Source: Clostridium sp. CAG:343
Lineage (GTDB): Bacteria > Bacillota > Clostridia > TANB77 > CAG-508
Length of the DNA: 64,000 bases
Assembly (NCBI GenBank): GCA_000431335.1
Contig: FR888054.1
Coordinates: 96,307-160,306, forward strand
Direction of reading: 5' to 3'
Part shown: piece by piece, positions 5,301 through 64,000 of the stretch
How positions within the stretch are numbered: position 1 is the stretch's first letter
Layout: each line of letters opens with the position of its first letter
The notes under the pieces: generated by a model
Databases searched by the model: none
Told to the model about the DNA's origin: nothing
Seen by the model: the letters and a program-made list of their open reading frames with translations, nothing else
Program-made: the position numbers and the translations under genes

Positions 5301-5418
5301 CGAGGTTTAACCGATTTTTGTGAGTTTGTGAAAATTAGAGTTTTTGTTGGTATATTGATATTTACAAGAGTTTTAACTTATAGAACATTTGTGCATTTTT
5401 AGGGCATTTTTGGAGAAG

Positions 5419-5440
5419 ATTTTACCCAATTTTTACCCAA
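5419..5440. repeat. arm-type tandem repeat attttacccaatttttacccaa (candidate integrase arm-binding site)
   Basis: The identical 22-mer recurs at 28260..28281, and both copies lie just inside the island ends. Confidence 0.45.
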
Positions 5441-5527
5441 TGGGTATGGTACGTTTGTTCTTAGGAATTTGGCTCTTGTGATAGCTATTTTTATTGAGAA
5501 AAATTTTAATTTTGGAGGTAAATTTTT

Positions 5528-5821
5528 ATGAGTAATTTAAGAGAAGTTAATGATGATATTTTAAAGGATTGGTTAGATTTTAGAGAGGATGCTATTGCTT
5601 CGTTAGGTTGTGCAGAGGATAAAAAGCATTGGATTTATTTTGATGAGATTTCTGAGAGGATTTTGAAGAATGTTCCTGATCAGAATAGAAAGTATGTTGA
5701 GAAACAACTAAAACAGCTTGATGATAATTTCTTTGATTATATTTGCTATTGGAATGAGAAGTATTATAGGAATGGATTTTGTGATGGTTCTCAATTAGTT
5801 ATGGGATGTTTTTCTAATTAA
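5528..5821 (+). CDS. hypothetical small protein (97 aa)
   Basis: Clean ORF with RBS GGAGGT. A degenerate copy of its 3' end is found at 9990..10045. Confidence 0.4.
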   Translation: MSNLREVNDDILKDWLDFREDAIASLGCAEDKKHWIYFDEISERILKNVPDQNRKYVEKQLKQLDDNFFDYICYWNEKYYRNGFCDGSQLVMGCFSN

Positions 5822-5852
5822 GAATACCAGGAAAATAATTTTCCTGGTATTC
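5822..5852. terminator. bidirectional rho-independent terminator hairpin (gaataccagga/tcctggtattc)
   Basis: Perfect 11-bp inverted repeat lying between convergent genes. Confidence 0.5.
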
Positions 5853-5876
5853 CTATATTTATTCTCATATTATTTC

Positions 5877-11010: not shown

Positions 11011-11597
11011 TTTTTTTCCTCCTTTTTATTTATTTTTTCTACTACTATTTGACTAACAAAATCTTTAGACTTTAGCCTGCATGATATAACCCCAATTATA
11101 TATGCAATTGTTATAGCTATTAGCTCTTTCCAGAAATAACTTGTCCATATTATAGTTAATACTATAAATACAATAACAAAAATAAATATTAAGAAAACAA
11201 TATCTCTTATAATACAATATTCAGCATTCTTACTTTCAACTATATTATTTTTTTCAACTGGTTTATAATAATCTCTGTAAAATATAAAATTAGGAATATT
11301 ATTCAATTCTTTTATCTTATAATTGTTCTTATCAATTCTTTTGTCATTTTTTATATATTCTTTTGCTTTCTCAAAAGGTGTTTTTTTATAAAAAATACCT
11401 AGTGCTATCCTTTGTTTTTTATTTCTATCAAACATTGATAGAAACAATAATGTAAAAACTAATAGTATTGCATCTATCGGCCATATTTCACTTATTAAAT
11501 TTGGGTAAATCACATTCAAGTTTAAAATAATATGATGACTGATTGCTATAATTAAAGTATATAACAAAATATACCTTTTCTCAAAACTTATTTCCAT
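11007..11597 (-). CDS. 4-TM membrane protein, translationally coupled to the MBL-fold gene
   Basis: Two N-terminal and two C-terminal hydrophobic helices. Its stop overlaps the start of the MBL gene by 4 nt. Confidence 0.4.
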   Translation of the reverse strand: MEISFEKRYILLYTLIIAISHHIILNLNVIYPNLISEIWPIDAILLVFTLLFLSMFDRNKKQRIALGIFYKKTPFEKAKEYIKNDKRIDKNNYKIKELNNIPNFIFYRDYYKPVEKNNIVESKNAEYCIIRDIVFLIFIFVIVFIVLTIIWTSYFWKELIAITIAYIIGVISCRLKSKDFVSQIVVEKINKKEEKK

Positions 11598-11690
11598 TAT
11601 ATTTTCTCCTTTCTCATTATCTTAATTTAAAAAAGCAAAATAATCCTGTAACTATTAATTACTCTCTTACTTTGCTTTTCCTATGTAAAC

Positions 11691-12335
11691 TTATTCTAAA
11701 TATTCTTTTAATCCATCAATTATTTTATACACTTTGGTCATTGGATTTTTTCGTGATGCTTGTCCATCTTTATTTAATTCTTCCATATATTCGCAATTCT
11801 TTATTGCTGTATGTAGCCTTTCTTCACTTGTAGCTTTTTCAAAAATGTTTGTATCGTTTTTAGTATATTCCCCTAAACCTTTTTTCTGAAATTCTTTACT
11901 TAATTCTTGTAATACATTGTCCTTTGAAATATACCTATTTACTTTCTTAAAATGTGATAATAACCACAATTCAAAATTAGGATTAGACCAAGCCACATTA
12001 TAATCACAGGTTTTAATTGCTTTATCAAATTGTTCATCTGAGTAATCATCTTTATCAAACACAACCCAAACTTGTCCATATCTTTTATTTGAATAATTTA
12101 CAAATTTATCTGTATATTTTACTAAAGCTGTGGTATTTTCACCTGTTCCTTTTATTTCAATATTAGGAATTAATACATCAACTTTGCTTCCATACTTTTC
12201 ATTTATCTTTTTCTTTAATCCATTAAAATAATTGGGTTCAGTTTGCTTCCCTTCACATACAATTAAGTAATTAGCTGGTGCAAGCCTCTTACTTTTTAAT
12301 CTGTCTTTTCTTGATATATTTCTATTATTCTTCAT
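11691..12335 (-). CDS. RloB-like (Toprim-like) protein, AbiLii-like
   Basis: N-terminus LIVCEGKQTEPNYF is the hallmark of the RloB family. It overlaps the upstream ATPase gene by 11 nt. Confidence 0.6.
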   Translation of the reverse strand: MKNNRNISRKDRLKSKRLAPANYLIVCEGKQTEPNYFNGLKKKINEKYGSKVDVLIPNIEIKGTGENTTALVKYTDKFVNYSNKRYGQVWVVFDKDDYSDEQFDKAIKTCDYNVAWSNPNFELWLLSHFKKVNRYISKDNVLQELSKEFQKKGLGEYTKNDTNIFEKATSEERLHTAIKNCEYMEELNKDGQASRKNPMTKVYKIIDGLKEYLE

Positions 12336-47142: not shown

Positions 47143-50100
47143 TTATTTTATATAATGTTTTTTTCTCACTATATAACTTACTCCTGCAATTGTAGCTCCT
47201 ACTCCAACAGATGCTATTATAATCCAAAATGCTACTGAACCTGTATATGGTAATTTAAATGGTAATTTTTCTAAAACTCCTTCATTTTTATTACTATTGC
47301 TATTGCTTTCATTTTCTTTCACAATTTCATTTATTTGTCCAGTTACAACATTTGAAATATTAATCTTACTTAAATCTGTTTTATTTCCAGCTGCATCTTC
47401 TATATTTTCTGTTATATTATTGATGGTCATTTTGCCAATATCTTTTTCTGATATTGTATATGTATATATTATAGAATTTACATATTCTCCTACAGTATAG
47501 TCGCTTTCTAAATTTCCTTCTGCTTTGTTTCTTCCAAATTTAATATTTAATACAGGTACTTCTTCAGCTGCTATATACTCATTTCTGTTTTTCATATTTT
47601 CATCTTCAAAAACGACTTTAATTTTAACTTTATCTCCTGCCTTATAATTTTTTCCTTCTTCTGCCATTACATAAATTGCCTTTATAGTTGATTTTGAATA
47701 ATCAATCACTATTGGCTCATCCATATTTTCTTCATTCATTACTGTCAAATTTGCTTCATTCCCTGATAAATCTCTACATCCACTTACTTGGATTTCAAGA
47801 TATCCCTCTTTTATTTTGTCATTTATTTCTAAACTAGCTGTATACTCTTTGCCACTACCTTCTACTGTAGCCACTTGTCCTCCCATTGTAACTGTTGGCA
47901 ATTCTGCTAAATCTTCATTTGAAGTAATATTAACTTTTACAATATCTCCTTTATTTAAATAATAACTATCTTTTTCTATTTCTGGGACTACTGTTATCTC
48001 TGGTGCTGTAGTATCTGCTACAACTTCACCAACTAATAAATTTATTCCGTTTGGAACTGTTTCTAAATTGCCTGTTAATTCATCAGACATTTCGTCTTGC
48101 TCTGTTACATCATCTCCTACAAATGCTTTAGTATTGCTAGAAATATATTCTTCACTTAGTTCTTTGCTTTCATCTTCTGATTCATCATTAGATAAAACTT
48201 CCATTTTTTCATTTTCTATATCTATATTTTCTTCTGTTTCTTCAATAGTAAAATCTTCTTCTTCTTCATTATTAACTGTTAATATAGTATCCATTTTACC
48301 AGTATCATCTGTTAAATTTCCATCATTTAGTCCTACTATTTTTAATATTCCATTATCTCCTTCTTGCACTTCATATTCGTATCTAATAGCTGTATTATTG
48401 TCTTCAAATCTAATAAATTCTGGATTTTTAACACTTGAATTGTTACCAAATTCTAACTGTAGTTCTGGTACATTTCCTTTTACTTCTTCTGAAAATGCAA
48501 TCTTTATACTTATTTTTTCCCCTTGTTTATATTCTTGTTGTCCTTCATCTTGATCAATTGTAACTTTTTGAATAGTAGGTATATTTAATGGCTTTACATT
48601 TACTTTTATTGTCTCTTTAACATCTTCATTTGTTGGGCTACTTATTTCTATAGTTGCTTTTCCCTCTGAAATAGCAAGTATTTTATATGCTCCTGTCTCT
48701 TCATCCTTATACATTCTTGCAATATCTTCATCTGATGATGTAATAATTGGTTCTTCTGTTGCATCTATTTCTCCTTCTATATCTTGACTATTTGCACTTG
48801 ATTTTAGAAGTTTAGATACTGAATTTGCAATTATATATTCCTCATCTTCTAATGATTCTTTTAGCGTAATATCTTGCTTACTTGTATAAATTTTAGTAAT
48901 AGACTTCTCTACCTTTACATCACATCCATCACTTATACCATCGATTGTAACAGTTACCTTTGCAGTTCCTTCTTTTACAGGTATAACTTCTACATTTCCA
49001 TAACTATCCTCTTTTAATTTTACAATATTTTCATCTGAACTTTTCCACTCAGCGTCTTTATTATCTAAATTTGTGTTTACTTTTAAATATGTATATTTAT
49101 CCGGTAAGTTAGACAAATCATAGTTTATTGTATTTTCACTTAATTCAACATATGCTTTATCTATAATTTCAATATTAAATCTAGCTGTTTTATATTTATT
49201 ATCTTCACTATTCTCATCTAGCATGCTACAACATATAACTATTTTGCTACCTGTTACAGCATTTTCATTAACTTTAATATTAGCACTTCCATCATTATTT
49301 TGAGTAATAGTTACCATATCTGCTTGCCCTTCAGCATACCATCTAATTTTATTTTGAATACTTTCATCTTTAAAATCTTCATAATCGTCATCTTTTAAAC
49401 TTTTAAACTTTAATGTAAAAACATCATTTTTATACATTCTATTATAATTATTAAAGCTCATTTTCTGAATGCCTGTAGCATCAACTACATTTAATGAACC
49501 ATCTCTGTTAATATCTCCTCTTTCTTTTTCTTCTTCTGTAAATTGAACCAAGTTTACTATTGCTCTTTGTACCTCAAACGAATCCACCTCTGTAATAAAT
49601 CCATCTTTGTTAACATCTCCTAAAATATTTTTGTTTACTTTCTTTGCAGTAATTACTTCAAATCCAGTAGTAATATTATTTTTATCTATTATTTTTAATT
49701 TTATTTCTCCCACTTTTTCTTCTTCATTATTTTCATTTAGGTATGTTACTTTTATTACCACACTACCGTTTAAAGCTGATAGTTCATTTTTTGATTTAAT
49801 TGAAATTCCATCTTGACTTTTAGTAACATTTACTAATTCTTCTCCTTCAGTAACAGATAATTTTAAATTGTCAATTGAAACTAATTTATTTTTATCGTCA
49901 TATACCTTAAATGTTTCTGAACTTCCTATTTGTAATGAATTTACTCTTTTATTTATAATAACTTTTAAAGCTGTTAAATCATTAGCGTCAATAGTATCAT
50001 TTCCATCAACATTAGCATATTTTTTTTGATCATCTGTAAGTTCTTGTAATTTAGATAAATATCTTTGTAATAACAAATAGTCGTATTCATTAATATATCC

Positions 50101-52974
50101 ATCTTGATTTATATCTCCTGCTATAGCCTCATTCTTTACATTCGTCGCACTATCTGTTTTGGCAGATTTTACTAATATATATCCATTTCCTTCCATATAC
50201 TTTTCTACTAAAGTATTTATATTGTCTGTTTCTGTTCCGCTTTCACTATCCCTACCAGCATTTGAAATTGTTACAGTATCTCCACTTATACTTAAAAGAA
50301 CTAACCAATGACCTATTGTAGTATATTTAGAATCAGGCCCTGGACTAACTCCAACAAGCACAGGCATACCTTTTTCTAAATTATTCCTTATATTTTTAAT
50401 AGTAGTTTCTGTTGAAGTATTATATTTTAGTTCAACTGTTACTCCAAAATTTTCAAAAGCTGTTTTTAATGATGAAGGGGACGTTCCCTCTTTTATACTA
50501 TTAGCTACATCTCCTGGATTTTTATCTATTCCTAATCCACTAAGTACAATTGCAACAGATGTTGGTCCACACCCATACTGATGTATTGTACCTCCCCAAT
50601 ATGATTTTTCAGCATATGAACCTCTAAACTGCTTATAATTTTTATAATTCTTATCTCCAACTTTTGTTAACCAAGTATATCCATCTCCTGTTTCTGAATA
50701 AGTTGAAATATCTACAGCACTTGCGAAATATAACTTATTTGCTTCACTATTTCCGTAATATAAATAAATTCCATTTGAAGATTTATTACTTTCATCTATA
50801 ATAATGTCATCTCCCAAGTTTCCTGACAAATTTTTATAATTCTTTATCTCTATTGGTATACATTTATCTACATAACCAAATGCATTAGCTGTTTGTAGTA
50901 TATAATTTGAATCTAAATATGCATAATAATGATATATTTCACTTTTATCTTTTTTATTTTTATTTTTTAATCTAGCAAAAGTCGTTTTGTGTCCACATAC
51001 ATATATTTCTGGATTATTTCCAAGTTTCTCTTCTGTTGTTAAATCTATTACTATTTTTTGATTTTGGTATATTGTCATTTTTTGTTTATCAGATGACAAT
51101 TTTCCTCCTGTTATATTTATTTCACTTATTTCAGGATAACTACTATCGAAATAAACTTTATTTTTTATAGTATAACTTGTAGCATTTCCCCATTTATCTG
51201 ATAGTCCATATATTTCTATTACATAATCTCCATATAAAGTCCCTGTTCCAAATTTATCTGTTATTGGAATTTCTATAGAGAAATTGGTTTTATTTCCTAC
51301 ATTTATTGTACCAGTTTTTAAATCTGTTCCATTAATTTTTATTCCACTATATTTTGAAACTTCTTCATGTGCTTTAAGATTTAATATCAATTTGTCTCCT
51401 ACTTTTACTGCACATTTATCTTTATCATAAATCTTGCCATCTTTCTTTATTTGTAAACTTTGTATTTTAGGTGGCGTTGTATCTGTTTTAATTTTTTTCT
51501 TTGATATTCTAATATTGCCTGCTAAATCCTCAACTTCGATATTATATGTTCCAGATTTTGTAACTTCATATGTTACAGGATATGCACAATAGTAATTTTT
51601 ATTATTACATTTATAAATATCACTTCCATTTACTGATATCCTTTTTATAGCCACATTATCTTTAGCACATATCATTAAGTACTTTATGTTTTTTCCTAAT
51701 TCACTTTTGCAACTAGCAGTAATCGTTGGACGATTTGTATCAATTCCTTTAACCTCTTGAGAAAAAGCAATAGTATTTAGTCCTGGATATATTACTTTTA
51801 TATTATAAGTTCCATTTTTTGTTACTAAATATTTTACTGTATTATACCCTACATATTTTCCATTTACATAAATTTTAGCATTGTTGCAATCAACATTTAA
51901 ACCATTACTTGGCCAAATATTTATATATTTCTTTTTTGCCCAACCATTAGTAACACTCGAATTATATCTTAAAGACATTTGATAATAATTGTTGCTATTA
52001 TTATTGTTGTTGTTATTATTGTTGTTATTATTATTTGGATTAGTACTTGCTTTGGTTCCTGACCAATTAAACATTACATATGATCCTTTAAATGGTGAAC
52101 TTGACGTACCTGGTATTCGAACCATTGCTTTTTCTTTTTCTTTTCCTTTACTTTTAACTGTAACTTTTTTTCCAGATATCTTGACAATATTCTCCTTATA
52201 ATAAGTAGGTGCTACTATATTACCATATGATTTCACAAAGATATCTGGCAATGTACTATTTCCTGTATTTCCACTTTTTATTGTTCCTAAATATTTAGTT
52301 ATTATTTGGTGTTGTAAATTATATCTAGCATCATGTACAATACCATCATTTATGCTTTCAATATTATTTTTACTTAAATCTATATATGTAATATTTTTTA
52401 AAGCTTTCCTTCCAGAAGAGGTCATAAACCCACTTGTTCCAGATATTTTACAATTAGAAAAATTTAATCTTCTTAAATTCGGCCATTTTGAAAAATCAGG
52501 TAATGTAGTTATTCCTCCTATATTTAATCCTGAAAAATTAAACTCTGTTTCTTTTTTACATGTAGCTGAACTAAAATATCTACTTGGTACTTCAATATAA
52601 TATCCTCCTGATATTTTATGTAATGCCTTTCTATTATTTCTTTCTAATGATGCCTCTACTGGATTCATATTTTTTTGTTCATCCCACGTTAACCATATTT
52701 CATCGGATATCTTATTAATAATATATTTTAATATTACATCACTAGAGCTAGTTATTCTAACAGAACTATATTTAGCCAATTTTTTCTCAATTGGATTAAT
52801 TGCTATTTGAGTAATACTAGTTTTATCTTCTTCATACTTAGCATCTTTTATCTTATTTGTTATACATACTAGTCCAATTATTACTTCTGCCACCAAAATA
52901 ATAAATAAAAAATTTAATACTTTTAAAAATTTCATAATTTTCATAATAATATCCCCTTTAATGTTATTAATCAC
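47143..52974 (-). CDS. giant cell-wall-anchored surface protein (1943 aa): signal/TM, LRR, polyAsn tract, Ig-like repeats, C39-like cysteine peptidase, dockerin-like repeats, LPxTG-type sorting signal
   Basis: LRR-like L..L.LS.N.I. A run of N x22. QYGCGPTSVAIVL...GHWLV is C39_2-like. Two pairs of dockerin/EF-hand-like D.N.DG.I...D. The C-terminal sorting signal is LPYTG followed by a hydrophobic segment and RKKHYIK. Confidence 0.7.
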   Translation of the reverse strand: MINNIKGDIIMKIMKFLKVLNFLFIILVAEVIIGLVCITNKIKDAKYEEDKTSITQIAINPIEKKLAKYSSVRITSSSDVILKYIINKISDEIWLTWDEQKNMNPVEASLERNNRKALHKISGGYYIEVPSRYFSSATCKKETEFNFSGLNIGGITTLPDFSKWPNLRRLNFSNCKISGTSGFMTSSGRKALKNITYIDLSKNNIESINDGIVHDARYNLQHQIITKYLGTIKSGNTGNSTLPDIFVKSYGNIVAPTYYKENIVKISGKKVTVKSKGKEKEKAMVRIPGTSSSPFKGSYVMFNWSGTKASTNPNNNNNNNNNNNNNSNNYYQMSLRYNSSVTNGWAKKKYINIWPSNGLNVDCNNAKIYVNGKYVGYNTVKYLVTKNGTYNIKVIYPGLNTIAFSQEVKGIDTNRPTITASCKSELGKNIKYLMICAKDNVAIKRISVNGSDIYKCNNKNYYCAYPVTYEVTKSGTYNIEVEDLAGNIRISKKKIKTDTTPPKIQSLQIKKDGKIYDKDKCAVKVGDKLILNLKAHEEVSKYSGIKINGTDLKTGTINVGNKTNFSIEIPITDKFGTGTLYGDYVIEIYGLSDKWGNATSYTIKNKVYFDSSYPEISEINITGGKLSSDKQKMTIYQNQKIVIDLTTEEKLGNNPEIYVCGHKTTFARLKNKNKKDKSEIYHYYAYLDSNYILQTANAFGYVDKCIPIEIKNYKNLSGNLGDDIIIDESNKSSNGIYLYYGNSEANKLYFASAVDISTYSETGDGYTWLTKVGDKNYKNYKQFRGSYAEKSYWGGTIHQYGCGPTSVAIVLSGLGIDKNPGDVANSIKEGTSPSSLKTAFENFGVTVELKYNTSTETTIKNIRNNLEKGMPVLVGVSPGPDSKYTTIGHWLVLLSISGDTVTISNAGRDSESGTETDNINTLVEKYMEGNGYILVKSAKTDSATNVKNEAIAGDINQDGYINEYDYLLLQRYLSKLQELTDDQKKYANVDGNDTIDANDLTALKVIINKRVNSLQIGSSETFKVYDDKNKLVSIDNLKLSVTEGEELVNVTKSQDGISIKSKNELSALNGSVVIKVTYLNENNEEEKVGEIKLKIIDKNNITTGFEVITAKKVNKNILGDVNKDGFITEVDSFEVQRAIVNLVQFTEEEKERGDINRDGSLNVVDATGIQKMSFNNYNRMYKNDVFTLKFKSLKDDDYEDFKDESIQNKIRWYAEGQADMVTITQNNDGSANIKVNENAVTGSKIVICCSMLDENSEDNKYKTARFNIEIIDKAYVELSENTINYDLSNLPDKYTYLKVNTNLDNKDAEWKSSDENIVKLKEDSYGNVEVIPVKEGTAKVTVTIDGISDGCDVKVEKSITKIYTSKQDITLKESLEDEEYIIANSVSKLLKSSANSQDIEGEIDATEEPIITSSDEDIARMYKDEETGAYKILAISEGKATIEISSPTNEDVKETIKVNVKPLNIPTIQKVTIDQDEGQQEYKQGEKISIKIAFSEEVKGNVPELQLEFGNNSSVKNPEFIRFEDNNTAIRYEYEVQEGDNGILKIVGLNDGNLTDDTGKMDTILTVNNEEEEDFTIEETEENIDIENEKMEVLSNDESEDESKELSEEYISSNTKAFVGDDVTEQDEMSDELTGNLETVPNGINLLVGEVVADTTAPEITVVPEIEKDSYYLNKGDIVKVNITSNEDLAELPTVTMGGQVATVEGSGKEYTASLEINDKIKEGYLEIQVSGCRDLSGNEANLTVMNEENMDEPIVIDYSKSTIKAIYVMAEEGKNYKAGDKVKIKVVFEDENMKNRNEYIAAEEVPVLNIKFGRNKAEGNLESDYTVGEYVNSIIYTYTISEKDIGKMTINNITENIEDAAGNKTDLSKINISNVVTGQINEIVKENESNSNSNKNEGVLEKLPFKLPYTGSVAFWIIIASVGVGATIAGVSYIVRKKHYIK
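51985..52040. repeat. AAT/AAC trinucleotide tract (minus strand) encoding the polyAsn run
   Basis: About 55 bp of (att/gtt)n on the plus strand. This is a simple-sequence repeat prone to in-frame length variation. Confidence 0.5.
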
Positions 52975-54055: not shown

Positions 54056-55417
54056 TTAATAATCTTTTCCTATAATAATCGTTACATCTACTTTGCTTGA
54101 ACTTGATTGACTATTTTGTATAACCCCTGTACCTAATACTTCTTTCATGTTTTGTAATAAAGTATTGCTTACATCTTTTTTATCTATAATAGTTGTTTTA
54201 GAAGTTGAATTAGTAGTTCCAGTTCTAGTAACTTTATAACCTGCTCCTTCTAGTTCACTTACTGCCTTTTGTAGTTTTTTACTATTTCCGCTTCCATTTA
54301 ATATTTCTATTTTAATATCACTTTTTTTATTTGATGTTACTGTATTATTAATAGTACTATTCGTTGAAGTATTTGAAGTCACATTATTTGTTGTAGTTTC
54401 TGCATTTTCAGTTAACTCTTCTGTATTATCTCTATCATAAAATAATTCCTGTATTAATGCTTGTGTTGCTTTTTTATCATGTATAAATACCCATTTTCCA
54501 GATGTATTTTTATTAGTATTGATTCCTGGTAAACTAGCTGTTAATAAATCATCTGTATTAAACTCTACTGCATATGGGACATAATCTTTTGCAACTTCAA
54601 AGTCTATATTAGTTATTACATATTCTTTTGCAACTTCTAAAATTTCTCCAATTTTAAATATATTTTCTGGTTTTGCTGTTTGTTTTATAACTTGCATAAT
54701 AAATTCTCTTTGTGTTCTCATTCTTCCTGTGTCATTGTCACCATATTCCTCTGGATATGAAGTACCATCATTATTATGTCTAAACCTTACTAACTGTTCT
54801 GCTTTGTCTCCATCTAATTTTTGTTCTCCTGCTTTTAAATGAATGTGTAAATTCTGTGATGTATCATCATAATTCATATCAATTGGAACATCAAATGTAA
54901 TACCTCCAATTACATCTACTAATTTAATTAAAGCTTCTGTTTTTACTACTACATAATATTTAATATCTAAACCTGTTATTTCATTTACTGCTTCTAAAGT
55001 TTCATCTGGTCTATGTTTTCTACTATACAATGCATTTATTTTTTCATAAGCTGTTGCTTTAGCTGGGGTTTTTCCAGTATATGTATCCCTTGGAATAGAT
55101 AATAATGTAGCTTTTTGAGTATTTGGATTATAAGAAGCAACCATAATAGTATCAGTTAAATCTACATTTTCTTGATCTGTACTAATACCTAATATTAAGC
55201 ATTTAAATTCCCCTAAATTTTTCTTGGTATTTTCATCATGTCCTACCACTGTTGCTAACATTCCAGACATTCCGCCTCCATTTTTATAAACTTTATATGC
55301 AAATACACTTCCTGCTATTAATATAATAAATAACATTATAAGCAAAACTTTTTTCCATACTTTTTTCTTATTTGTTGTTCCTTTTTTTCCTCTTTTGTTA
55401 GAATTACTTTTTTTCAA
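54056..55417 (-). CDS. LCP (LytR-CpsA-Psr) family cell-envelope phosphotransferase
   Basis: N-terminal TM. LytR_cpsA_psr core DTIMVASYNP...LLSIPRDTY. Confidence 0.75.
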   Translation of the reverse strand: MKKSNSNKRGKKGTTNKKKVWKKVLLIMLFIILIAGSVFAYKVYKNGGGMSGMLATVVGHDENTKKNLGEFKCLILGISTDQENVDLTDTIMVASYNPNTQKATLLSIPRDTYTGKTPAKATAYEKINALYSRKHRPDETLEAVNEITGLDIKYYVVVKTEALIKLVDVIGGITFDVPIDMNYDDTSQNLHIHLKAGEQKLDGDKAEQLVRFRHNNDGTSYPEEYGDNDTGRMRTQREFIMQVIKQTAKPENIFKIGEILEVAKEYVITNIDFEVAKDYVPYAVEFNTDDLLTASLPGINTNKNTSGKWVFIHDKKATQALIQELFYDRDNTEELTENAETTTNNVTSNTSTNSTINNTVTSNKKSDIKIEILNGSGNSKKLQKAVSELEGAGYKVTRTGTTNSTSKTTIIDKKDVSNTLLQNMKEVLGTGVIQNSQSSSSKVDVTIIIGKDY

Positions 55418-55642: not shown

Positions 55643-56257
55643 TTATGTTTTAAAAAACACATTTAATATATTATAAGTACTCATTGTCTTTGCTAAATAC
55701 GATTCTTGCATAGCATTATCAAGTGCTCCATTTGGATTAAGTATTACTACTAATTGTATTACCATTAAAATCACATAAGTAATAATAATTCCTCTTAATA
55801 ATCCGTACAAAACTCCTCCTATTTCATTAAACTGTTTTATAATTGGAAATTTTGCTACTTGATTAGCTAACGAATTAACTAGTAATAAACAAATTTTAAT
55901 TATTATAAATAACACTATTAATGTTATTCCATATATAATATTTATCGATAAACTTTTAGATGTATCTGGTAAAAGTCCATTTTTTGCACTTTCTATAAGT
56001 TTACTTGAACTATCTTTACTATCATCATTTTTCATAAACTCTTCTATTTTGGTTTGTATCATTTGTTGTAACTTTTCATCTACTGTAGTATTATTAATTA
56101 TTATATTACCAATTGGTTTATATAATAATAATGTTACAACCATTGCAATTATAAATGCTAATATATTTATTGCCAATGAAATTAATCCCTTTTTATAGCC
56201 AAAAAACGCTGAAGCTAATATAAATAATATAATTATTATATCAATTACAATTCCCAT
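55643..56257 (-). CDS. cvpA: CvpA-family membrane protein
   Basis: N-terminus IDIIIILFILASAFFGYKKGLI plus 3-4 TM helices. Confidence 0.55.
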   Translation of the reverse strand: MGIVIDIIIILFILASAFFGYKKGLISLAINILAFIIAMVVTLLLYKPIGNIIINNTTVDEKLQQMIQTKIEEFMKNDDSKDSSSKLIESAKNGLLPDTSKSLSINIIYGITLIVLFIIIKICLLLVNSLANQVAKFPIIKQFNEIGGVLYGLLRGIIITYVILMVIQLVVILNPNGALDNAMQESYLAKTMSTYNILNVFFKT

Positions 56258-56270
56258 AATTTATCCCCTT

Positions 56271-57455
56271 TTATAAGTTTATAATTTCAATTTTATCTCT
56301 ATAGATAATTCCGGCTATACTATCTGAAACAACAATATTAGTAATTTCTTGATTTGCCACATATCTCTTTACAAGCCATCCATCTGTACTAATGAACTCT
56401 ACTTCTGTTCCTAAATTAATTGCTATAATATTTCCATATGTATATAATTCTTTAGTAACAGAACTTGCTGTATATTGCTTTATTTCATGATTTTCAATAT
56501 TCACTATATTTACTAAAGAATCTGCTGTAAATAATCCCGAAGATTTTTCTTCAATTGAACATGCTCTATTTACTAAATTTACTGATTGAAATATTACTTT
56601 TTTATTTTGATTATCTATTAGTGTTATATCTTCTCCGTTCTCTATTTGATGTATAGAGTCTGTATACATACAAACTAGCTTATTTTTATTTTGATATTTT
56701 ATATTAGTTATTAGCTTATTTTCTTCTCCCTTATATGTATTTTCTAATGAATTAGTAGGATCAGTACTTGCCTTATCTATTGATATAACTTTTATACTAG
56801 ATTGTATCATAGTACCTGATGTGTCAACTTCTGCAATTGCTAAATACTTATTATCATTTGAGATGCTAACATCTACTGCTCTTGTTGATGATAGATATGT
56901 ATTAAACAATTCTTTTCCTTGAGGATTATATGTTTTTATAACTGTTTTATAACTTGTATCTACTATTACTACTGCTACATATCCATTTTTATTAACATGT
57001 ACTTGTGAAATGTTTCCTTCCACTTCCGCTTCCCAAGCTATGTCTTTATCTGAAATTAAATAGACTTTTTTCCCTTTGTTTTCTGCTATTGCTAAAAATC
57101 TATTTGCTGAACCCCAAATAGGATTTGAAATTTGTAAATCAAGTGTCTTTTCCTGACTTCCTGTACTATTATAAATTGAAAATTTAGTTTTATTTAAAAT
57201 ACCTATATATTTATTAAAAGCATAAATATTAGAATCTTGATTCTCTTTTAAATCTATTGTTGCTACTTTATCTTGTAATACTTCTTTTCTAAATATATTT
57301 TTATCAATCCATTCTCTTGCCTTGTCATTAGTACTATATAGCCCAATTGTTATAATTGCTATTACAATAAATACTATAATTATCGTTAAAATAACTATTT
57401 TTTTCTTATTAACTTTCTTTTCCTTATTAGTTGCGTCTATCCAAATATCTTTCAT
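56271..57455 (-). CDS. membrane-anchored hypothetical protein (single N-terminal TM, beta-rich ectodomain)
   Basis: ORF with one TM helix. No recognised motif. Confidence 0.4.
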   Translation of the reverse strand: MKDIWIDATNKEKKVNKKKIVILTIIIVFIVIAIITIGLYSTNDKAREWIDKNIFRKEVLQDKVATIDLKENQDSNIYAFNKYIGILNKTKFSIYNSTGSQEKTLDLQISNPIWGSANRFLAIAENKGKKVYLISDKDIAWEAEVEGNISQVHVNKNGYVAVVIVDTSYKTVIKTYNPQGKELFNTYLSSTRAVDVSISNDNKYLAIAEVDTSGTMIQSSIKVISIDKASTDPTNSLENTYKGEENKLITNIKYQNKNKLVCMYTDSIHQIENGEDITLIDNQNKKVIFQSVNLVNRACSIEEKSSGLFTADSLVNIVNIENHEIKQYTASSVTKELYTYGNIIAINLGTEVEFISTDGWLVKRYVANQEITNIVVSDSIAGIIYRDKIEIINL

Positions 57456-57545
57456 TTTATATTTTCTCCTTGGTTTTTATTAGTTAAGTTATATCAGTTT
57501 TTCATGTTTTTTTCAAGGTTTTTACGAATTTTTTAAGTTTCAAAA

Positions 57546-58054
57546 GTTACAGTTCAGTAAGAGATGATTATGATGTCCAATCTTTGCCTCCAACTATAAC
57601 ACTTAAATTTTATTTAATGTCTTTTCATTTCATTCAAAAAGAAAATCTAATACAAGAAAATAAGGCGCTTTCACTCAAGCTCAAAATTATTATTATATGA
57701 ATTTAAACTTTTCGAATGTAATTGGAGTAATCTTAGAATTTCTTAGATAATTTAATGGAAAATGTTCGCGTCGAGCTTTAGCTCGGACTAAGTGAAAGGG
57801 TGCCATTAAATTATTTTAGAAATTCTTAGATTATGTATTGAACTGAGAAAAGTTTAAATTCATATAATAATAATTTTGCCCGTGAACATTACTCATTTTC
57901 TTGTAAAAGATTTTCTATTTTTCATTCCAATCAAACGTCATTAAATAAAATTTAAGTGTTATAGTTGGAAAATCAAACGTCATTAAATAAAATCTAAGTG
58001 TTATAGTGGGAGCCAAAGCTTGGACATCATAAGCATTTCTTACTGACCTATAAC
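57546..58054. repeat. about 510-bp near-perfect palindrome (long inverted repeat, MITE-like) in the dapF upstream region
   Basis: The arms match over about 230 bp. For example 57546..57579 aligns with the reverse complement of 58021..58054 at 30 of 34 positions. The centre is near 57782 (cgagctttagctcg). The right arm has an internal 40-bp tandem duplication. Confidence 0.6.
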
Positions 58055-58083
58055 AAAATACTAAAACTTAAAAATAAGAAAGC

Positions 58084-58112
58084 TTTACAAAAAAATATAC
58101 ATATGATAGAAT
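58084..58112 (+). promoter_or_regulatory. sigmaA-type promoter candidate for dapF (-35 TTTACA, 17-nt spacer, -10 TAGAAT)
   Basis: Hexamers at 58084..58089 and 58107..58112. An RBS AGAGGGTG precedes the ATG at 58165. Confidence 0.35.
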
Positions 58113-58164
58113 GACAACTAATAAAATATAACTATATTTTATTTAGTATTAATACCTAAAGAGG

Positions 58165-59008
58165 GTGAAGAAAATGAAAAAATTTACAAAAATGCACGGG
58201 TTAGGAAATGATTATGTCTATATGGATGCCATACACCAAAAAATAGACAATGGATCTGAACTAGCTCGTTTTGTTAGTAATAGGCACTTTGGGATTGGTT
58301 CAGATGGTTTGATTTTAATCTGTAAAAGTGATATTGCTGATTTTAAAATGAGAATGTTTAATCAAGATGGTAGTGAAGCAGAAATGTGTGGCAATGGAAT
58401 TCGTTGTGTAGGAAAGTTCGTATATGACAAAGGGTTAACTAATAAAACAACGGTAACAATTGAGACTTTAGCTGGAATAAAAACACTAAAATTTAATTTA
58501 AAAGATAAAAAAGTAGAAACAGTAAGGGTAGATATGGGAGAACCAATTTTAAATCCAGAAATGATTCCAGTTATATCAAGTGAAAATCCAGTAAAAGATT
58601 TAAAGTTAAAAGCTTTAGATAAAGAATTTATTTTTACTTGTGTATCTATGGGAAATCCGCATGCTATTACAGTAGTAAAAGACACAGAAAAATTTGATGT
58701 AGAAACTTATGGAAGAATATTGGAAGTAGACAAAGCTTTTCCAAATAAAACAAATGTTGAATTTGTTCAAATAGTAGACAAAGAACATATAAAAATGAGA
58801 GTATGGGAAAGAGGTGCAGGAGAAACTTTAGCTTGTGGAACAGGAGCATGTGCAACAGCAGTTGCCTGCCATTTAAATGGTCTTACAGATAGAAATGTAT
58901 ACATAGAATTACTTCGGAGGAACATTAAAAATAGAATGGAATAAAGAAGATAATCATATTTATATGACAGGACCAGCAGTAACAGTATTTGAGGGGGAAT
59001 TAGAATGA
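58165..59008 (+). CDS. dapF: diaminopimelate epimerase, with an apparent +1 frameshift near 58909..58915
   Basis: N-terminal [11 protein letters not shown] and catalytic Cys motifs (CGNGIRC, GTGACA). The annotated frame ends ...[12 protein letters not shown]. The +1 frame continues as [31 protein letters not shown] and ends in the ATGA overlap with dapL, matching the conserved DapF C-terminus (ELPGG.L.I.W...MTGPA). Confidence 0.75.
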
Positions 59009-60201
59009 GTTTAATAAATGAAAATTTTTTAAAATTACAAGATAGCTATTTATTTTCAACAATAGCAAAAAAAGTAGCAAAATTTACTGAAGAAAATCCA
59101 GAAAAGGAAATAATAAAACTTGGAATAGGTGATGTTACAAGGCCTATAGTTCCAGCATGTATAGAAGCTATGCATAAAGCAGTAGATGAAATAGGAACAA
59201 AAGAAGGTTTTAAAGGATATGGACCAGAGCAAGGTTATGATTTCTTAAGAGATGCAATAGTAAAAAACGATTATAAATCAAGAGGAATAGATGTAAAAAA
59301 AGATGAAATATTTGTATCAGATGGAGCAAAATGTGATTGTGGAAATATAGTAGATATTTTTGGAAAAGAAAATAAAGTAGCTATTACAGACCCTGTTTAT
59401 CCTGTATATTTAGATACAAACATTATGTCAGGAAGAGATGTTATATACTTACCTGTAACAGCTAAAAATAACTTTATGCCAGAGCTACCAAAAGAAAAAG
59501 TAGATATGATATATCTATGTTTCCCAAATAATCCAACAGGAACAGTTTTAACAAAAGAAGAATTGAAGAAGTGGGTAGACTATGCTAAAGCAAATAATTC
59601 AGTAATTTTATATGATGCTGCATACGAAGCATTCATAACAGAAGAAAAAATACCACATAGTATTTATGAAGTAGAAGGAGCAAAGGAAGTTGCAATTGAG
59701 TTCAAAAGCTACTCAAAAACAGCAGGATTTACAGGAGTTAGATGTGCATATGTAGTAATACCAAAAGAGTTAAAAGGATATACAAAAGATGGAAAAGAAA
59801 TAAGCTATAATAAGTTATGGAATAGAAGAACTTGTACAAAATTTAATGGTGTATCTTACATAGTACAAAGAGCAGCAGAAGCAACATATTCTGAAAAAGG
59901 TAAAAAAGAAATAAAAGAAAATATAAATTATTATTTGGAAAATGCTAAAATAATAAAAAAAGGTTTAGAAGAAGCAGGATTTACATGCTATGGAGGGGTT
60001 AATTCACCATATGTATGGTTGAAAGTTCCAGATGGTATGACGTCTTGGGAGTTTTTTGATGAACTATTAGAAAAAGCAAATGTTGTAGGAACTCCAGGAA
60101 GTGGATTTGGACCTCATGGAGAGGGATATTTTAGATTAACAGCTTTTGGAACGAAGGAAAATACAATTAAGGCAATTGAGAGAATAAAAAAGGTAATGTA
60201 A
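59005..60201 (+). CDS. dapL: LL-diaminopimelate aminotransferase
   Basis: N-terminus [21 protein letters not shown]. Aminotransferase class I fold with the PLP lysine region ([12 protein letters not shown]). It is translationally coupled to dapF. Confidence 0.8.
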
Positions 60202-60207
60202 AAAGAG

Positions 60208-60246
60208 AAGGTAGTGATTACTAAGAAAGTAGTCATTACCTTTTTA
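60208..60246. terminator. rho-independent terminator after dapL
   Basis: Imperfect hairpin ggtagtgattact...agtagtcattacc followed by TTTTT. Confidence 0.45.
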
Positions 60247-60315
60247 TTAATTTTAAAATTGGTATGTAATAAATTGTTAAATAGTATTACAGATTAATCT
60301 AATCTGTTCATTATG

Positions 60316-60372
60316 TTCAAAAAGAGAATCTAGTATAAAAAATAAGGCACTTTCACTCAGGTTAAAATCATA
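60316..60372. repeat. partial copy of the palindrome left-arm segment (caaaaagaRaatcta...aataaggcRctttcactcaRg)
   Basis: About 50 of 57 nt match 57634..57690. Confidence 0.45.
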
Positions 60373-60518
60373 TACATATATACATTCTAATTATACTATA
60401 GGTTTGTAAATTACAATTAAATGAAAATAATACAAACATAAATTTGTAAAAAATGTTGACTTTTAATTATAATATTTATATAATTAGCAAAGAAAAAATT
60501 ATAAAAGGTGGGCGAAAA

Positions 60519-61073
60519 ATGAAGGAACAATTTTTAGAATTATTAAAAAAAGTAAAAAGAGAAGGAATAGACGAATTAATACAATTTTTAGAAAAATCAG
60601 ATTTTTTTATTGCACCAGCAAGTACAAGATTTCATGGAAATCACGAAGGTGGTCTTGTAGAACATAGTATAAAAGTTTATGAAATATTAAAACATAAAGT
60701 AGAAAATAGCATATTAAAAATAGATATACCAGAAGAATCAATAATTATAATAGGATTATTACATGATATTTGTAAAACTAATTTTTATAAAGTAGATTTT
60801 AGAAATGCTAAAAATGCCTTGGGAGTTTGGGAAAAAGTACCATATTACACAATAGAAGATACAATACCATATGGACATGGAGAAAAATCAGTAATGATGA
60901 TTACAGAATATATGAAATTAACACCAGAAGAAAAATACTCTATACGTTGGCATATGGGATACACTGAGCCAAAAGAAAATTATAATGCAATAGGAGCAAG
61001 TTATACAAAATATCCAATTGCTTTATTAACACATGAAGCAGACTTGGAAGCAACTTATTTTTATGATACATAA
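60519..61073 (+). CDS. HD-domain phosphohydrolase
   Basis: HGNHEGGLVEH...LLHDICK (H..HD motif pair). Start at ATG 60519 after AAAGGTGG. Confidence 0.6.
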   Translation: MKEQFLELLKKVKREGIDELIQFLEKSDFFIAPASTRFHGNHEGGLVEHSIKVYEILKHKVENSILKIDIPEESIIIIGLLHDICKTNFYKVDFRNAKNALGVWEKVPYYTIEDTIPYGHGEKSVMMITEYMKLTPEEKYSIRWHMGYTEPKENYNAIGASYTKYPIALLTHEADLEATYFYDT

Positions 61074-61096
61074 AAGTTAAATTAGAGAGGAAAAAA

Positions 61097-61720
61097 ATGA
61101 TAGCATATATAAAGGGAAAATTAGAAATGAAAATGACTGAATATGTAGTAATAGATGTTGGAGGCATTGGTTATAAAGTATTCATGTCAGAATTAGGAAT
61201 AGAAAATATAGGAAATATAGGAGACACAGTAAAAGTACATACATATTACAGAGTAAGAGAGGATGACATAAGTATTTTTGGTTTTAATACCCTAGAAGAA
61301 TTAAAGATGTTTGAACTTTTACTTGGAGTAAGTGGAGTTGGAGCAAAAACAGCTCTTACAATGCTTGCAGTATGTGAACCTTCTGAGTTTGCATTAGCTG
61401 TTATTTCAGAAGATGTAAAAGCATTAACAGGAATTCCTGGAATAGGACCAAAATCAGCTAAAAGAATAATATTAGAACTAAAAGATAAAATAAAGAAAGA
61501 ACAAGAAGTAAAAGCTATAAAAGATACAATAGAAAATAAGGCAAGTTCAAAAATACAAATAGCTATTCAAAATGACGAAAAAGTAAAAGAAGCAATTTCA
61601 GCTCTTCAAGTTTTAGGATATAATAGAAAAGAAATAGAAAAAGCCTTTGGAAAATTACCAACGATAGAAATGTCAACAGAAGAATTAATAAGAAAAGGAT
61701 TAGTAGCATTAGGAAAATAA
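61097..61720 (+). CDS. ruvA: Holliday junction DNA helicase subunit RuvA
   Basis: MIAYIKGKL...VVIDVGGIGYKV. HhH pair GVSGVGAKTAL...GIPGIGPKSAKRI. The C-terminal domain III is present. Confidence 0.85.
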   Translation: MIAYIKGKLEMKMTEYVVIDVGGIGYKVFMSELGIENIGNIGDTVKVHTYYRVREDDISIFGFNTLEELKMFELLLGVSGVGAKTALTMLAVCEPSEFALAVISEDVKALTGIPGIGPKSAKRIILELKDKIKKEQEVKAIKDTIENKASSKIQIAIQNDEKVKEAISALQVLGYNRKEIEKAFGKLPTIEMSTEELIRKGLVALGK

Positions 61721-61740
61721 TAAAAATAGAGGTAGAGATT

Positions 61741-62977
61741 ATGAATATGAATGAACCATTAGCATTTCGAGTAAGACCAAAAACATTAGAAGAATATATT
61801 GGTCAAGAACATGTATTACGGAAAAGATAAAATTTTATATAGAACAATTAAAGCAGATAGACTATCTAGTATCATTCTATTTGGACCTCCAGGATGTGGA
61901 AAAACTTCACTTGCAAGAGTAATAAGTGAAACAACGAAATATAAATTTTACAAAATAAATGCAGTAACAGCAGGAGTAGCAGATATAAAAAAAGTAATAG
62001 AAGAAACAAAAAACTTCATGCTAAATCCAACAGGAAAAAGCATATTATTTATAGATGAAATTCATAGATTTAACAAATTACAACAAGATGCTCTACTTCC
62101 TTATGTAGAAAATGGAACAATAATACTAATAGGAGCTACAACAGAAAATCCATATTTTGAAGTAAACAAAGCTTTAATTTCAAGATCAATGGTTGTAAAG
62201 CTAGATCCATTAACAGAGGACAATATATACGATATTTTAAAAAATGCAATAAAAAATAAAGATGGGCTTGGAGAATATAATATAAAAATTGAAGATGCTA
62301 CATTAAAAAAATTAGCTACAATATCCAATGGTGATGTAAGAACAGCACTAAATGGATTAGAAGTAGCAACTTTAACAACAGCAATGAGTGATGATGGTTA
62401 TATTCATTTAACAGATGAAGATATAAAAAATAGTGTTCAAAGTAAAAAGGCGATTTTCGATAAAAACGGTGAGCAACATTATGATAATATTAGTGCATTC
62501 ATTAAATCAATGAGAGGTTCAGATCCAGATGCAGCAGTATTTTATTTAGCACGTGCGTTAAATGGTGGAGAAGATCCAATGTTTTTAGCTAGAAGAATAG
62601 TAATATGTGCATCAGAAGATGTTGGAATGGCAAATCCAAATGCGTTAGTTGTTGCAAATAGTGCAATGCAAGCAGTACATATAATAGGAATGCCAGAAGC
62701 AAGAATATTATTGTCAGAAGCAGCTATTTATGTAGCAACATCAAAAAAATCAAATGCATCATATATGGCAATAAACAAAGCATTAGAAGATGTTAAAACA
62801 AAAGACACAGGAGAAGTTCCAATGCATATTAGAAATGCTCCTATAGAAAAAATGAAAGAATTAGGCTATCATGAGGGATACTTGTATCCACATGATTTCC
62901 CAGGACACTATGTAGAGCAACAATATCTTCCAGATAAAATGGTTGGAACTAAATATTATGTAAAAGATGAAAAATGA
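61741..62977 (+). CDS. rarA: replication-associated recombination protein A (RarA/MgsA), with an apparent +1 frameshift at about 61819
   Basis: The frame from ATG 61741 (RBS GAGGTAGAG) gives MNMNEPLAFRVRPKTLEEYIGQEHVLRKR*. The next frame continues as GKDKILYRTIKADRLSSIILFGPPGCGKTSLARVI..., matching conserved RarA (YIGQ.HLLG.GK.L). Deleting the C at 61819 restores a single ORF. Confidence 0.7.
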
Positions 62978-63053
62978 GTTATATTACTATGTAATATAGC
63001 TCTTTTTTTAAAATAAAATGAATAAATTCTGAAAAAAACTTCAAAATAATAAT

Positions 63054-63419
63054 ATGAATAAAAACAAAATTTTTTTAAAAATGGCAATAGGTTTTATAGC
63101 TGGAATAATAAGCGGACTATTTTCTACTGGAGGAGGAATGATATTAGTTCCAGCATTTATATATTTATTAAAAATCAAAGATATAAAAGCAAGAGGAACA
63201 TCAATATTTTGTATTTTACCTATGGTATTAACAAGTAGTTTTTTCTATTATAAAGGAAACTATATTAATTGGAAAATAGCATTTTTGTGTGCTCTAGGAG
63301 GTGCAATAGGGGGATATATAGGAGCAAGATTATTAAAAAAATTGCCAGAAAAGATATTAAAAAGTGCTTTTGCTATATTTTTAATATATGTAGCAGTTAG
63401 AATGTTAACAGCAAATTAA
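63054..63419 (+). CDS. TSUP (TauE/SafE) family half-size 4-TM transporter subunit
   Basis: GxxxGxxSG and GGGM motifs. About 120 aa, half of a canonical TSUP protein. Confidence 0.55.
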   Translation: MNKNKIFLKMAIGFIAGIISGLFSTGGGMILVPAFIYLLKIKDIKARGTSIFCILPMVLTSSFFYYKGNYINWKIAFLCALGGAIGGYIGARLLKKLPEKILKSAFAIFLIYVAVRMLTAN

Positions 63420-63468
63420 ACAATTGCAAAAATAAAAATCGGAAACATTCCAAATCGGAGGTAGAAAT

Positions 63469-63852
63469 ATGATAGAAATTCTTATTGGAATGATATCTGG
63501 AATTGTAAGTGGAACGGGTATGGGAGGAGGAACAATTTTAATATTTCTTCTTACTTTTATGATGGGAATAGAGCAACATGTGGCTCAAGCGACAAACTTA
63601 ATATTCTTTATTCCAACTTCAATTGTTGCAATAATTATAAATATAAAAAATAAAAATATTGATTTAAAATTAGCAATAATAATATCTATATTTGGTATTT
63701 TAGGAGCTATTATAGGCTCTAATATATCAGTATATACAGATGTTAAAATATTAAAAAAATGTTTTGGAGTTTTTTTAATAATAGTTGCGATTAATGAAAT
63801 ATATTCCATAATAAGATTGTATAAAAAAGATAAAAAAACAAATAATAAATAA
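63469..63852 (+). CDS. TSUP (TauE/SafE) family half-size 4-TM transporter subunit (second half)
   Basis: Same motifs as 63054..63419 (GIVSGTGMGGG). RBS GGAGG. Confidence 0.55.
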   Translation: MIEILIGMISGIVSGTGMGGGTILIFLLTFMMGIEQHVAQATNLIFFIPTSIVAIIINIKNKNIDLKLAIIISIFGILGAIIGSNISVYTDVKILKKCFGVFLIIVAINEIYSIIRLYKKDKKTNNK

Positions 63853-63869
63853 AAAGAGGAGGGATTTTC

Positions 63870-64000
63870 ATGAAATTTGTAAAAGGAGTTGTAATTGGAG
63901 GTTTAATAACTACTGGTTTTGTTATGATGTATGCAGAAACAGGAAAAATGAACAAAAAAATGATTATGAAAAAAGGTAAACAATTAGCAAAAAAGATGGG
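63870..64000 (+). CDS. hypothetical membrane-associated protein, 5' partial at the window edge
   Basis: RBS AGAGGAGGG then ATG 63870. The ORF runs to the end of the window. Confidence 0.3.
   Translation, partial: MKFVKGVVIGGLITTGFVMMYAETGKMNKKMIMKKGKQLAKKM

Follow-up and report, generated by a model that had tools for sequence, protein, structure and literature searches.

A palindrome upstream of dapF in an uncultured gut Clostridium as a probable recombinant copy of a dispersed foldback-type repeat

The palindrome between the DUF5711 gene and dapF

The window analyzed here is a 64,000-nucleotide stretch of Clostridium sp. CAG:343 (GenBank assembly GCA_000431335.1, contig FR888054.1, positions 96,307 to 160,306 of the forward strand) with a G+C content of 25.5%, and the element in question is a 509-bp palindrome that lies between a gene for a DUF5711 protein and the dapF gene (Table 1). 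A previous reading of the DNA without database searches, referred to below as the sequence-only reading, had described this palindrome together with a partial third copy downstream of dapL, and had proposed that it could be a miniature inverted-repeat transposable element (MITE)-like or foldback element, a large regulatory hairpin, or a recombination hotspot. Based on the data presented below, we consider it likely that the palindrome is a copy of a non-autonomous repeat of the foldback type (MITE-like) that occurs in uncultured human-gut Clostridia, and that the copy in the window is a recombinant, situated at an inversion junction, of two copies designated eA (upstream of the DUF5711 gene in other strains) and eB (upstream of dapF in other strains).

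The palindrome was found where the sequence-only reading had placed it, in an imperfect form, with five collinear inverted-repeat blocks that jointly cover all 509 bp. Its arms are inverted copies of one another, as had been proposed, but not at the identity of 85 to 90% given for them, since BLAST aligned them at 76% over 392 columns, with the outer 74 nt at 89%. Similarly, the tandem duplication in the right arm is present, but at 42 bp (57929-57969 / 57971-58011, 95% identical) rather than 40 bp, while the short palindrome at the center was located just as described. Folding of the element, which had also been suggested, yielded energies far below those of shuffled sequences on both strands. 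For RNA, the plus strand folded at -199.5 kcal/mol compared to a shuffle mean of -88.5 +/- 5.1 (z = -21.8) and the minus strand at -206.3 kcal/mol compared to -89.7 (z = -19.3), and the DNA fold was -118.8 kcal/mol compared to -40.4 (z = -19.7). In none of the three cases was any shuffle as low as the observed energy.

The left arm is composed of a terminus, GTTACAGTTCAGTAAGAGATGATTATGATG, a variable outer part, and a conserved 26-nt core, CTATAACACTTAAATTTTATTTAATG (57594-57619); a scan of the window returned this terminus as a match at one mismatch, where none was expected by chance. The inner segment is oriented in the window with the end designated T1 (TCTTTTCATTTC...) on the left and the end designated T2 (...CCAATCAAACGT) on the right. 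Each terminus of the element (57546-57574 and 58026-58054) also contains an inward-facing, promoter-like pair, GTTACA-17-TATGAT, the two hexamers of which are the best-conserved bases of the outer arms across sites. These hexamers could be transposase-binding sites or convergent promoters.

Table 1. Features of the element and its surroundings, in window coordinates
Feature	Position	Strand	Remarks
LytR-CpsA-Psr	54056-55417	-	left of element
CvpA	55643-56257	-	left of element
DUF5711	56271-57455	-	left of element
Hybrid copy of the ~467-bp repeat	57546-58054	.	509 bp via the 42-bp duplication; profile match 485.6 bits
Left terminal arm, eA type	57546-57619	+	identical to the DUF5711-side arm in L014, L015, L020
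Inner segment	57620-57938	.	both orientations known from other assemblies
Central mini-palindrome CGAGCTTTAGCTCG	57776-57789	.	hairpin tip; sequence and fold
Two tandem 42-bp units	57929-58011	+	each with the right-hand core; repeat finding, SNP (single-nucleotide polymorphism) types
Right end including right terminal arm, from eB	57970-58054	-	100% identical to L008 8966-9050
AAAATACT, right copy of the eB 8-bp flanking repeat	58055-58062	+	flanks eB on both sides elsewhere
Inverted block	57546-57630 / 57970-58054		85 nt, 87%
Inverted block	57589-57645 / 57913-57969		57 nt, 84%
Inverted block	57675-57713 / 57847-57885		39 nt, 92%
Inverted block	57728-57758 / 57803-57833		31 nt, 90%
Inverted block	57636-57664 / 57892-57920		29 nt, 86%
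Promoter-like site, TTTACA-17-TAGAAT with TG	58084-58112	+	between element and dapF
dapF	58174-58944	+	right of element
Class I/II aminotransferase (dapL-like)	59005-60201	+	right of element
Terminator-like hairpin	60205-60245	+	after dapL
Relic: core end, P segment, GGCRCTTTCACTCAGG motif	60299-60370	+	72 nt, past the dapL terminator
HD-domain gene	60453-61073	+	right of element
ruvA	61097-61720	+	right of element
mgsA	61799-62977	+	right of element

A dispersed, non-coding repeat family

The sequence-only reading had called for a search for further copies, and this search revealed that the element is dispersed in public collections. The collections were scanned with a 26-nt core pattern, CTATAAYACTTARATTTTATTTAATG, taken from the inner end of the arm. 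In the GTDB species genomes, the pattern was found on three contigs from two genomes, one of which represents the species of the window, mislabelled as 'Sebaldella sp.' (with 99.6% identity between its contig L023 and L002), and the other a different 'uncultured Clostridiales' metagenome-assembled genome (MAG). Metagenome contigs contributed at least 111 stretches, from the human gut wherever the contig names state a source, and a single viral contig contained a copy, located beside a tRNA and a prophage integrase. A profile search delimited 144 element regions in 135 loci, which are identified here by L numbers where needed, and the outer flanks of the copies fall into at least 25 classes, so that at least 12 intergenic sites must be occupied. 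Several contigs have copies at both ends, 9-14 kb apart, or two copies up to 78 kb apart (range 7-78 kb).

These loci share a common anatomy. The unit is ~467 bp in length and comprises two terminal inverted arms of ~74 nt, which start with GTTACAGTTCAGTAAG and end in the 26-nt core, and a quasi-palindromic inner segment of ~320 bp. Termini resembling GTTACAGTTCAGTAAGAAATGATTATGATG were observed at both ends of copies at all sites, and every match to the terminus in the 1.4 Mb of loci lay within an element or a deletion derivative of one. No orphan termini were present in these 1.4 Mb, and an exact-match scan of viral contigs did not detect the terminus. Among 65 contig-internal copies, none overlapped an open reading frame (ORF) of 120 aa or longer, and the ORFs within the element of the window are short, unconserved, and without a Shine-Dalgarno sequence. 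The lack of coding content, together with the restriction of the termini to elements and their derivatives, implies that the element is non-autonomous. The genes adjoining the copies include those for a DUF5711 protein, gdpP, scpA/scpB, ddl, rpoC, and a tRNA, and no recurrent protein family was found beside different sites among the neighbors of the copies.

Direct repeats at the boundaries of several copies point to transposition. Perfect 8-bp repeats (8/8) were observed for eB, where AAAATACT occurs on both sides in L001-L006, L008, and L010, for the copy in L033/L046 (TAAAAAAC), and for the copy in L069 (also L058, L073, L095, L112, and L115; ATATTTTT). The copy in L105 is flanked by a repeat matching at 7/8 positions (AGGWATAA), and eA by one matching at 6/8 (TTTCAAAA / TTTCGATA). 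The chance of one perfect 8-bp flank match at the present base composition is estimated at ~1e-4, and the repeats provide good evidence that the element would have inserted with an 8-bp target duplication, presumably by means of a transposase supplied in trans.

Once in place, the copies appear to be unstable. The eA copies of L012 and L013 differ from those of L014 and others in that the inner ~320 bp is reverse-complemented between outer arms that have not changed. Moreover, L016 and L019, which are independent assemblies produced with different assemblers, share a deletion that extends from the flipped interior of eA into the flank at the microhomology CATAATCTTAAAATTT; this deletion is derivable only from the flipped eA, indicating that the flipped state really existed. 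Both inner orientations occur in most flank classes, with the exception of eB, for which a single orientation was found in 16 and 18 copies. Counted from the sequences, the longest identical run between the arms is at most ~28 nt in eB and ~60 nt in eA. Centre-deleted forms of 170 bp were observed in L001/L008 and in L092, with differing joints at the short direct repeats TTTTCATT and CATTCAAA, indicating that these were independent slippage deletions, and in L009 the element is lost nearly completely, with just GTTACAGTTCAGTAAC left between both copies of AAAATACT. Exchange of flanks is apparent in L007, L038, L071, L088, L102, and the window, each of which pairs the flanks of different sites. 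Finally, mosaic copies (L021 and the flank-6 and flank-12 groups) change from T1-type to T2-type sequence or back at various internal positions, and the variability of these switch points speaks for homologous recombination or gene conversion rather than for site-specific crossover at a fixed position. The model favored here would be one in which recombination within a copy flips the inner segment, given the inverted-repeat structure of every copy and the likeness among copies, slippage deletes the center or nearly the whole of the element, and recombination between copies rearranges the chromosome. The repeat is tied to strain-level structural variation in the form of flips, deletions, flank exchanges, and a probable inversion of ~130 kb.

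The pattern of conservation is unusual. Averaged over 36 distinct full copies, mean column identity is 0.45 in the flanks, 0.76-0.82 in the outer arms, and 0.94-1.0 in the inner segment, the value for the core being fixed by the search pattern. Variants of the outer arm always accompany the flank, and inner haplotypes are common to several sites. This inward rise in identity is as gene conversion among dispersed repeats would produce, with a function of the inner segment as the alternative. Within one element, the two arms pair at 87% in the outer part, 99% in the core, and 76% in the inner part; given that the inner segment is conserved between copies yet pairs at only 76%, its left/right asymmetry must itself be conserved. 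Mismatches between the arms are strand-symmetric (217 of the G:T type and 216 of the A:C type), and there is consequently no sign of selection for an RNA fold on one strand.

The closest known kind of element is the bacterial MITE, and the repeat itself is previously undescribed; a full-text literature search with its terminal, core, and motif sequences returned no match. Bacterial MITE families, including Correia/NEMIS, ERIC, RUP, RPE, and YPAL, have been reviewed (Delihas 2008, PMC2229807); they are typically 100-200 bp with a TA duplication, and for most of them the mobilizing transposase is unknown (PMC2229807). Like these families, the element described here is non-coding, A+T-rich, and intergenic, has terminal inverted repeats and target-site duplications, forms one long stem-loop over its entire length, and occurs as many dispersed copies that differ from strain to strain. 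It differs from them in its length of ~467 bp, in a duplication of 8 bp instead of TA (there is no TA at the termini), in an inner part that is more conserved than the termini and found in both orientations, and in an apparently modest copy number of a dozen or more sites instead of hundreds. Eukaryotic Foldback (FB) elements consist of two long inverted arms, mostly without coding capacity, and are notorious for inversions, deletions, and other rearrangements; their arms extend over kilobases and are composed of tandem subrepeats. The repeat in the window is similarly made up almost wholly of inverted arms, is non-coding, and rearranges within and between copies, but it resides in a bacterial host and lacks kilobase arms of tandem subrepeats, and no homology is implied. 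REP, BIME, and REPIN sequences, which are palindromes of 20-40 nt, often clustered and associated with a RAYT transposase, were also considered and set aside, as the unit here is 467 bp, single, and unclustered, with no RAYT-like gene recurrent near the copies.

The suggestion of a MITE-like or foldback element is therefore upheld, given that the repeat is dispersed and non-coding, that its termini are conserved, and that 8-bp duplications flank some of its copies. It would represent a mobile or recombination-prone repeat, not described before, of an uncultured human-gut Clostridia species that is very prevalent, the proteins neighboring the element having index entries in over 5000 blocks of the assembly collection. 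The element often breaks metagenome assemblies of the species and may cause mis-joins, and accordingly matters for MAG quality and for inferences based on synteny.

The hybrid copy and a probable chromosomal inversion

Comparison with related strains, which the sequence-only reading had also recommended, was carried out on contigs encoding exactly the DapL and DUF5711 proteins of the window, and revealed that dapF and the DUF5711 gene are not neighbors in other assemblies. Elsewhere, a transglycosylase gene lies upstream of dapF and an ABC-transporter auxiliary gene upstream of the DUF5711 gene, and each locus has a ~467-bp copy of its own (eB, L002 8584-9050; eA, L014 9444-9910). In two contigs that contain both loci (L004/L013 and L005/L014, the latter 1.58 Mb), eA and eB are 129-138 kb apart, with the DUF5711 gene and dapF on the same strand.

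The copy in the window combines these two. Element positions 1-424 correspond to eA of L014 at 99.8% identity, and the remaining positions, 425-509, match the dapF-proximal end of eB in L008 at 100%, with megablast placing the switch at 57969/57970. To the left of the switch, colinearity with the DUF5711 locus extends over 11.7 kb, and to the right the window follows the dapF locus for the 6 kb up to its end (L005 8966-14996 corresponds to window 57970-64000 at 99.85%). The 42-bp duplication constitutes the joint between eA and eB, the first unit having eA-type SNPs and the second eB-type SNPs. The sequence at the joint, GTTGGA followed directly by AAATCAAACG, is in neither parent copy, and none of the 135 other loci contains the junction 20-mer. 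As judged by these alignments, the window copy is a chimera of the two resident copies, in line with the earlier suggestion of a recombination hotspot. The joint also creates a promoter-like sequence, TTGGAA-17-TAAAAT (57965-57993, directed toward dapF), that neither parent copy has.

If the far arm of eA crossed over with the dapF-side arm of eB, the ~130 kb that separates the two copies would be inverted; this would generate exactly the gene order and the hybrid composition found in the window, and would also have parted the left partner of AAAATACT from the right copy. The window copy thus seems to sit at one end of a chromosomal inversion of ~130 kb, which we infer from this end because the reciprocal junction falls outside the window. 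Recombination between insertion sequences (IS) in E. coli is an example of repeat-mediated chromosomal inversion (PMC5009759), and the arrangement proposed here is comparable in that dispersed homologous repeats recombine, the interval between them inverts, and hybrid repeats result at both junctions. It is distinct in that the repeat is a short palindrome and in that the joint contains a 42-bp duplication in place of a clean homologous exchange. Since the repeat is palindromic, any pair of copies offers arms in inverted orientation.

Alternative readings

Several observations weigh against this interpretation, and some of them bear on whether the junction exists at all. The arrangement and junction sequence of the window were found in no other assembly among the ~50 contigs inspected, and the long-read-style contigs L001, L005/L014, L006, L009, and L017, classified as such from their names and sizes, all have the standard arrangement. 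In addition, many of the apparent flank exchanges come from short-read assemblies, which are prone to mis-joins across a 467-bp repeat, and many contigs end inside the element, which evidently confounds assemblers. It could be argued from these points that the element is real but that the joining of DUF5711, element, and dapF is an assembly chimera through the shared repeat, or a minority variant, rather than an inversion. We regard this as unlikely, and the junction as very likely a real recombinant molecule. A mis-join in an assembly graph would be seamless, whereas the joint of the 42-bp duplication matches neither parent nor any other locus, so that reads must contain it; moreover, the distribution of eA SNPs in the first unit and eB SNPs in the second is that of a physical recombinant, and both sides are colinear with their home loci over the distances given above. 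An assembly artefact had been named by the sequence-only reading as what would refute the palindrome, and this is refuted for the element itself by its occurrence in more than 100 independent assemblies, but only in part for the junction. Other observations weigh against transposition of a foldback-type repeat. Several sites lack a flanking duplication (eA matches at 6/8, and the sites in L064 and L059 have no match), which may be due, if one assumes it, to later flank exchange blurring the duplications at some sites. No clean empty site was seen; L009 is without the element yet retains a 16-bp remnant and both copies of AAAATACT, a state that, from its sequence, is a deletion or excision footprint rather than a pristine empty site. 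An autonomous partner, with the same termini around a transposase, was not found in the 1.4 Mb of loci, the window, or the exact-match viral scans. Lastly, the inner segment is ~96% identical between copies and the terminal arms ~78%, the reverse of the usual MITE pattern, which requires either concerted evolution or a function of the inner segment.

The both-ways orientation of the inner segment also prompts one to ask if these repeats are a family of programmed invertible switches, in which a recombinase encoded elsewhere flips the ~320-bp segment at the 26-nt cores and the orientation steers adjacent genes. Switches of this kind are known as invertons, phase-variable invertible DNA segments that include fimS, the polysaccharide promoters of Bacteroides, and the cwpV and flgB switches of C. 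difficile. Invertons have also been described from the gut (PMC11892184). The resemblance is considerable, as the repeat provides an intergenic segment of a few hundred bp between inverted repeats, present in both orientations in close genomes and at most sites, and often located beside envelope genes. Conservation is strong for the inner segment and its asymmetry but not for the outer arms, 53 of 55 copies have at least one gene downstream of them (the other two being between convergent genes), and the neighbors include dapF, ddl, the LytR operon, a transglycosylase gene, and gdpP, several of them cell-envelope genes. Nevertheless, we consider such a family of switches improbable. No recombinase gene recurs near the copies, exchanges between T1 and T2 occurred at several internal positions (L021, flank-6, and flank-12), as expected of homologous recombination, and the joint in the window is staggered by 42 bp, so that the crossover is not confined to one defined site. 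Flipping also parallels the length of identity between the arms, with no flips in the 16-18 copies of eB but flips in eA. A consensus scan identified no strong outward promoter in the element, only weak (9/12) sites, and no promoter specific to one orientation, and promoter-like sites lie outside the element for dapF and, by eye only since the tool made no call, for DUF5711 (TTGAAA-17-TATAAC). Unlike an inverton, the unit is dispersed, the invertible segment is quasi-palindromic, and the 8-bp flanking duplications point to transposition. A combination of both ideas, a transposable unit with an asymmetric ~320-bp cassette flipped at the 26-nt cores by a trans-acting recombinase, is in our estimation highly improbable; if true, one system would govern phase variation at a dozen or more loci, many of which concern the cell envelope, and would drive programmed large chromosome inversions in an abundant, uncultured species of gut Clostridia. 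Two further explanations are extremely improbable. The position upstream of a lysine-pathway operon and the strong folding would suit a structured RNA leader, riboswitch, or attenuator of dapF-dapL, but no Rfam match was obtained (57400-60500 at E <= 5, or the whole window at the gathering threshold), both strands fold equally with strand-symmetric mismatch types, the promoter-like site of dapF is downstream of the element, the sequence upstream of dapF is the same in strains without the element, and the element also lies beside unrelated genes; on the same grounds, the large regulatory hairpin of the sequence-only reading is not sustained. A local inverted duplication that arose in place, for instance by foldback replication, would account for a palindrome over the whole length and for the tandem duplication, but not for the near-identical units that exist at no fewer than 12 other sites, as well as in a second species, nor for a copy whose halves trace to two different resident copies.

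The dapF-dapL region and neighboring genes

In strains with the full element, the 170-bp remnant, or the 16-bp remnant, the sequence from the end of the element to the start of dapF, including the promoter-like site, is identical. From these sequences, nothing indicates that the element controls dapF or would be required for its expression, and with the palindrome explained as a member of a repeat family, its annotation as a dapF regulator would be unwarranted.

The third copy reported downstream of dapL does exist, but as a short, degenerate fragment of ~70 nt (BLAST 60303-60371, 81.7%, E = 4e-12) that aligns with element positions 75-145. The profile search assigned 60299-60370 to model positions 68-143 (E = 5.5e-12), and apart from this fragment and the palindrome, BLAST, the profile search, and the terminus scan detected no further match to the element within the 64-kb window. 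The relic of 72 nt is common to all strains compared, an 86-bp deletion having removed half of it in L001 and L010, and the left neighbor of the upstream copy in other strains is a gene other than DUF5711. To describe the dapF-dapL operon as bracketed by copies is accordingly misleading, since what is found downstream is a fixed relic that all strains share. A composite transposon around dapF-dapL was rejected on the basis of this relic and of the position of the operon, which is independent of the upstream copy.

Other mobile elements were encountered near the copies. In L069, an IS3-family element (4360-5806; orfA of 170 aa and orfB of 266 aa) is inserted inside the copy at about element position 127-130 with a 3-4-bp duplication. 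Being the only element with a large insert, this copy was examined as a candidate autonomous partner and rejected, as the insert is an unrelated IS3-family element with its own short duplication. In L002-L004, L006, and L008 (~900-6900), a mobile element lies within a gene for a GH94 glycosyl-hydrolase-like protein of 2710 aa, ~2 kb upstream of eB; the insertion leaves a remnant of 148 aa, its cargo includes Mob_Pre, HTH_36, and a large serine recombinase, and it is absent in L001, L005, L009, and L010. L024 contains a prophage (10403-11772; tyrosine integrase, LexA/CI-like repressor, antirepressor, and DnaB-like helicase) next to a minus-strand tRNA-like gene, read by eye with no tRNA-finder confirmation, that is located ~90 bp from a copy of the element, and the viral contig ends inside the element. 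A phage or plasmid origin of the repeat was rejected, as distant-mode blastn of phage and plasmid collections gave no match and the single IMG/VR match is host DNA.

The DapL and RuvA proteins of the window have identical counterparts in a MetaHIT 'CAG' genome and in MAGs labelled Clostridiaceae or Clostridia bacterium. GC skew switches several times within the window, merely tracking the strand of the genes, and is therefore uninformative on a replication origin or terminus. As called, dapF encodes 256 aa, and the canonical C-terminus of DapF is intact in the +1 frame up to 59005 (window 58906-59005). The shift site reads CTT CGG A (Leu, then Arg-CGG), CGG being used for 3 of the 16,920 codons in the window, and it resembles the Ty1 +1 frameshift heptamer, CUU-AGG-C. 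The shift recurs in every other assembly covering the site (15 loci), and the frame that follows is 100% identical in 13 of these, 93.5% identical in L124, and disrupted in L104, which has low coverage. The shift would reflect either programmed +1 frameshifting of a housekeeping gene or a truncation that has become fixed. A very large dockerin/LRR gene (window 47143-52974; ~14512-20355 in L011-L020), situated downstream of the LytR operon, varies between 1731 and 1945 aa across strains, and the L014 version is ~90% identical to that of the window over part of its length, compared to 97-99% for the flanking DNA.

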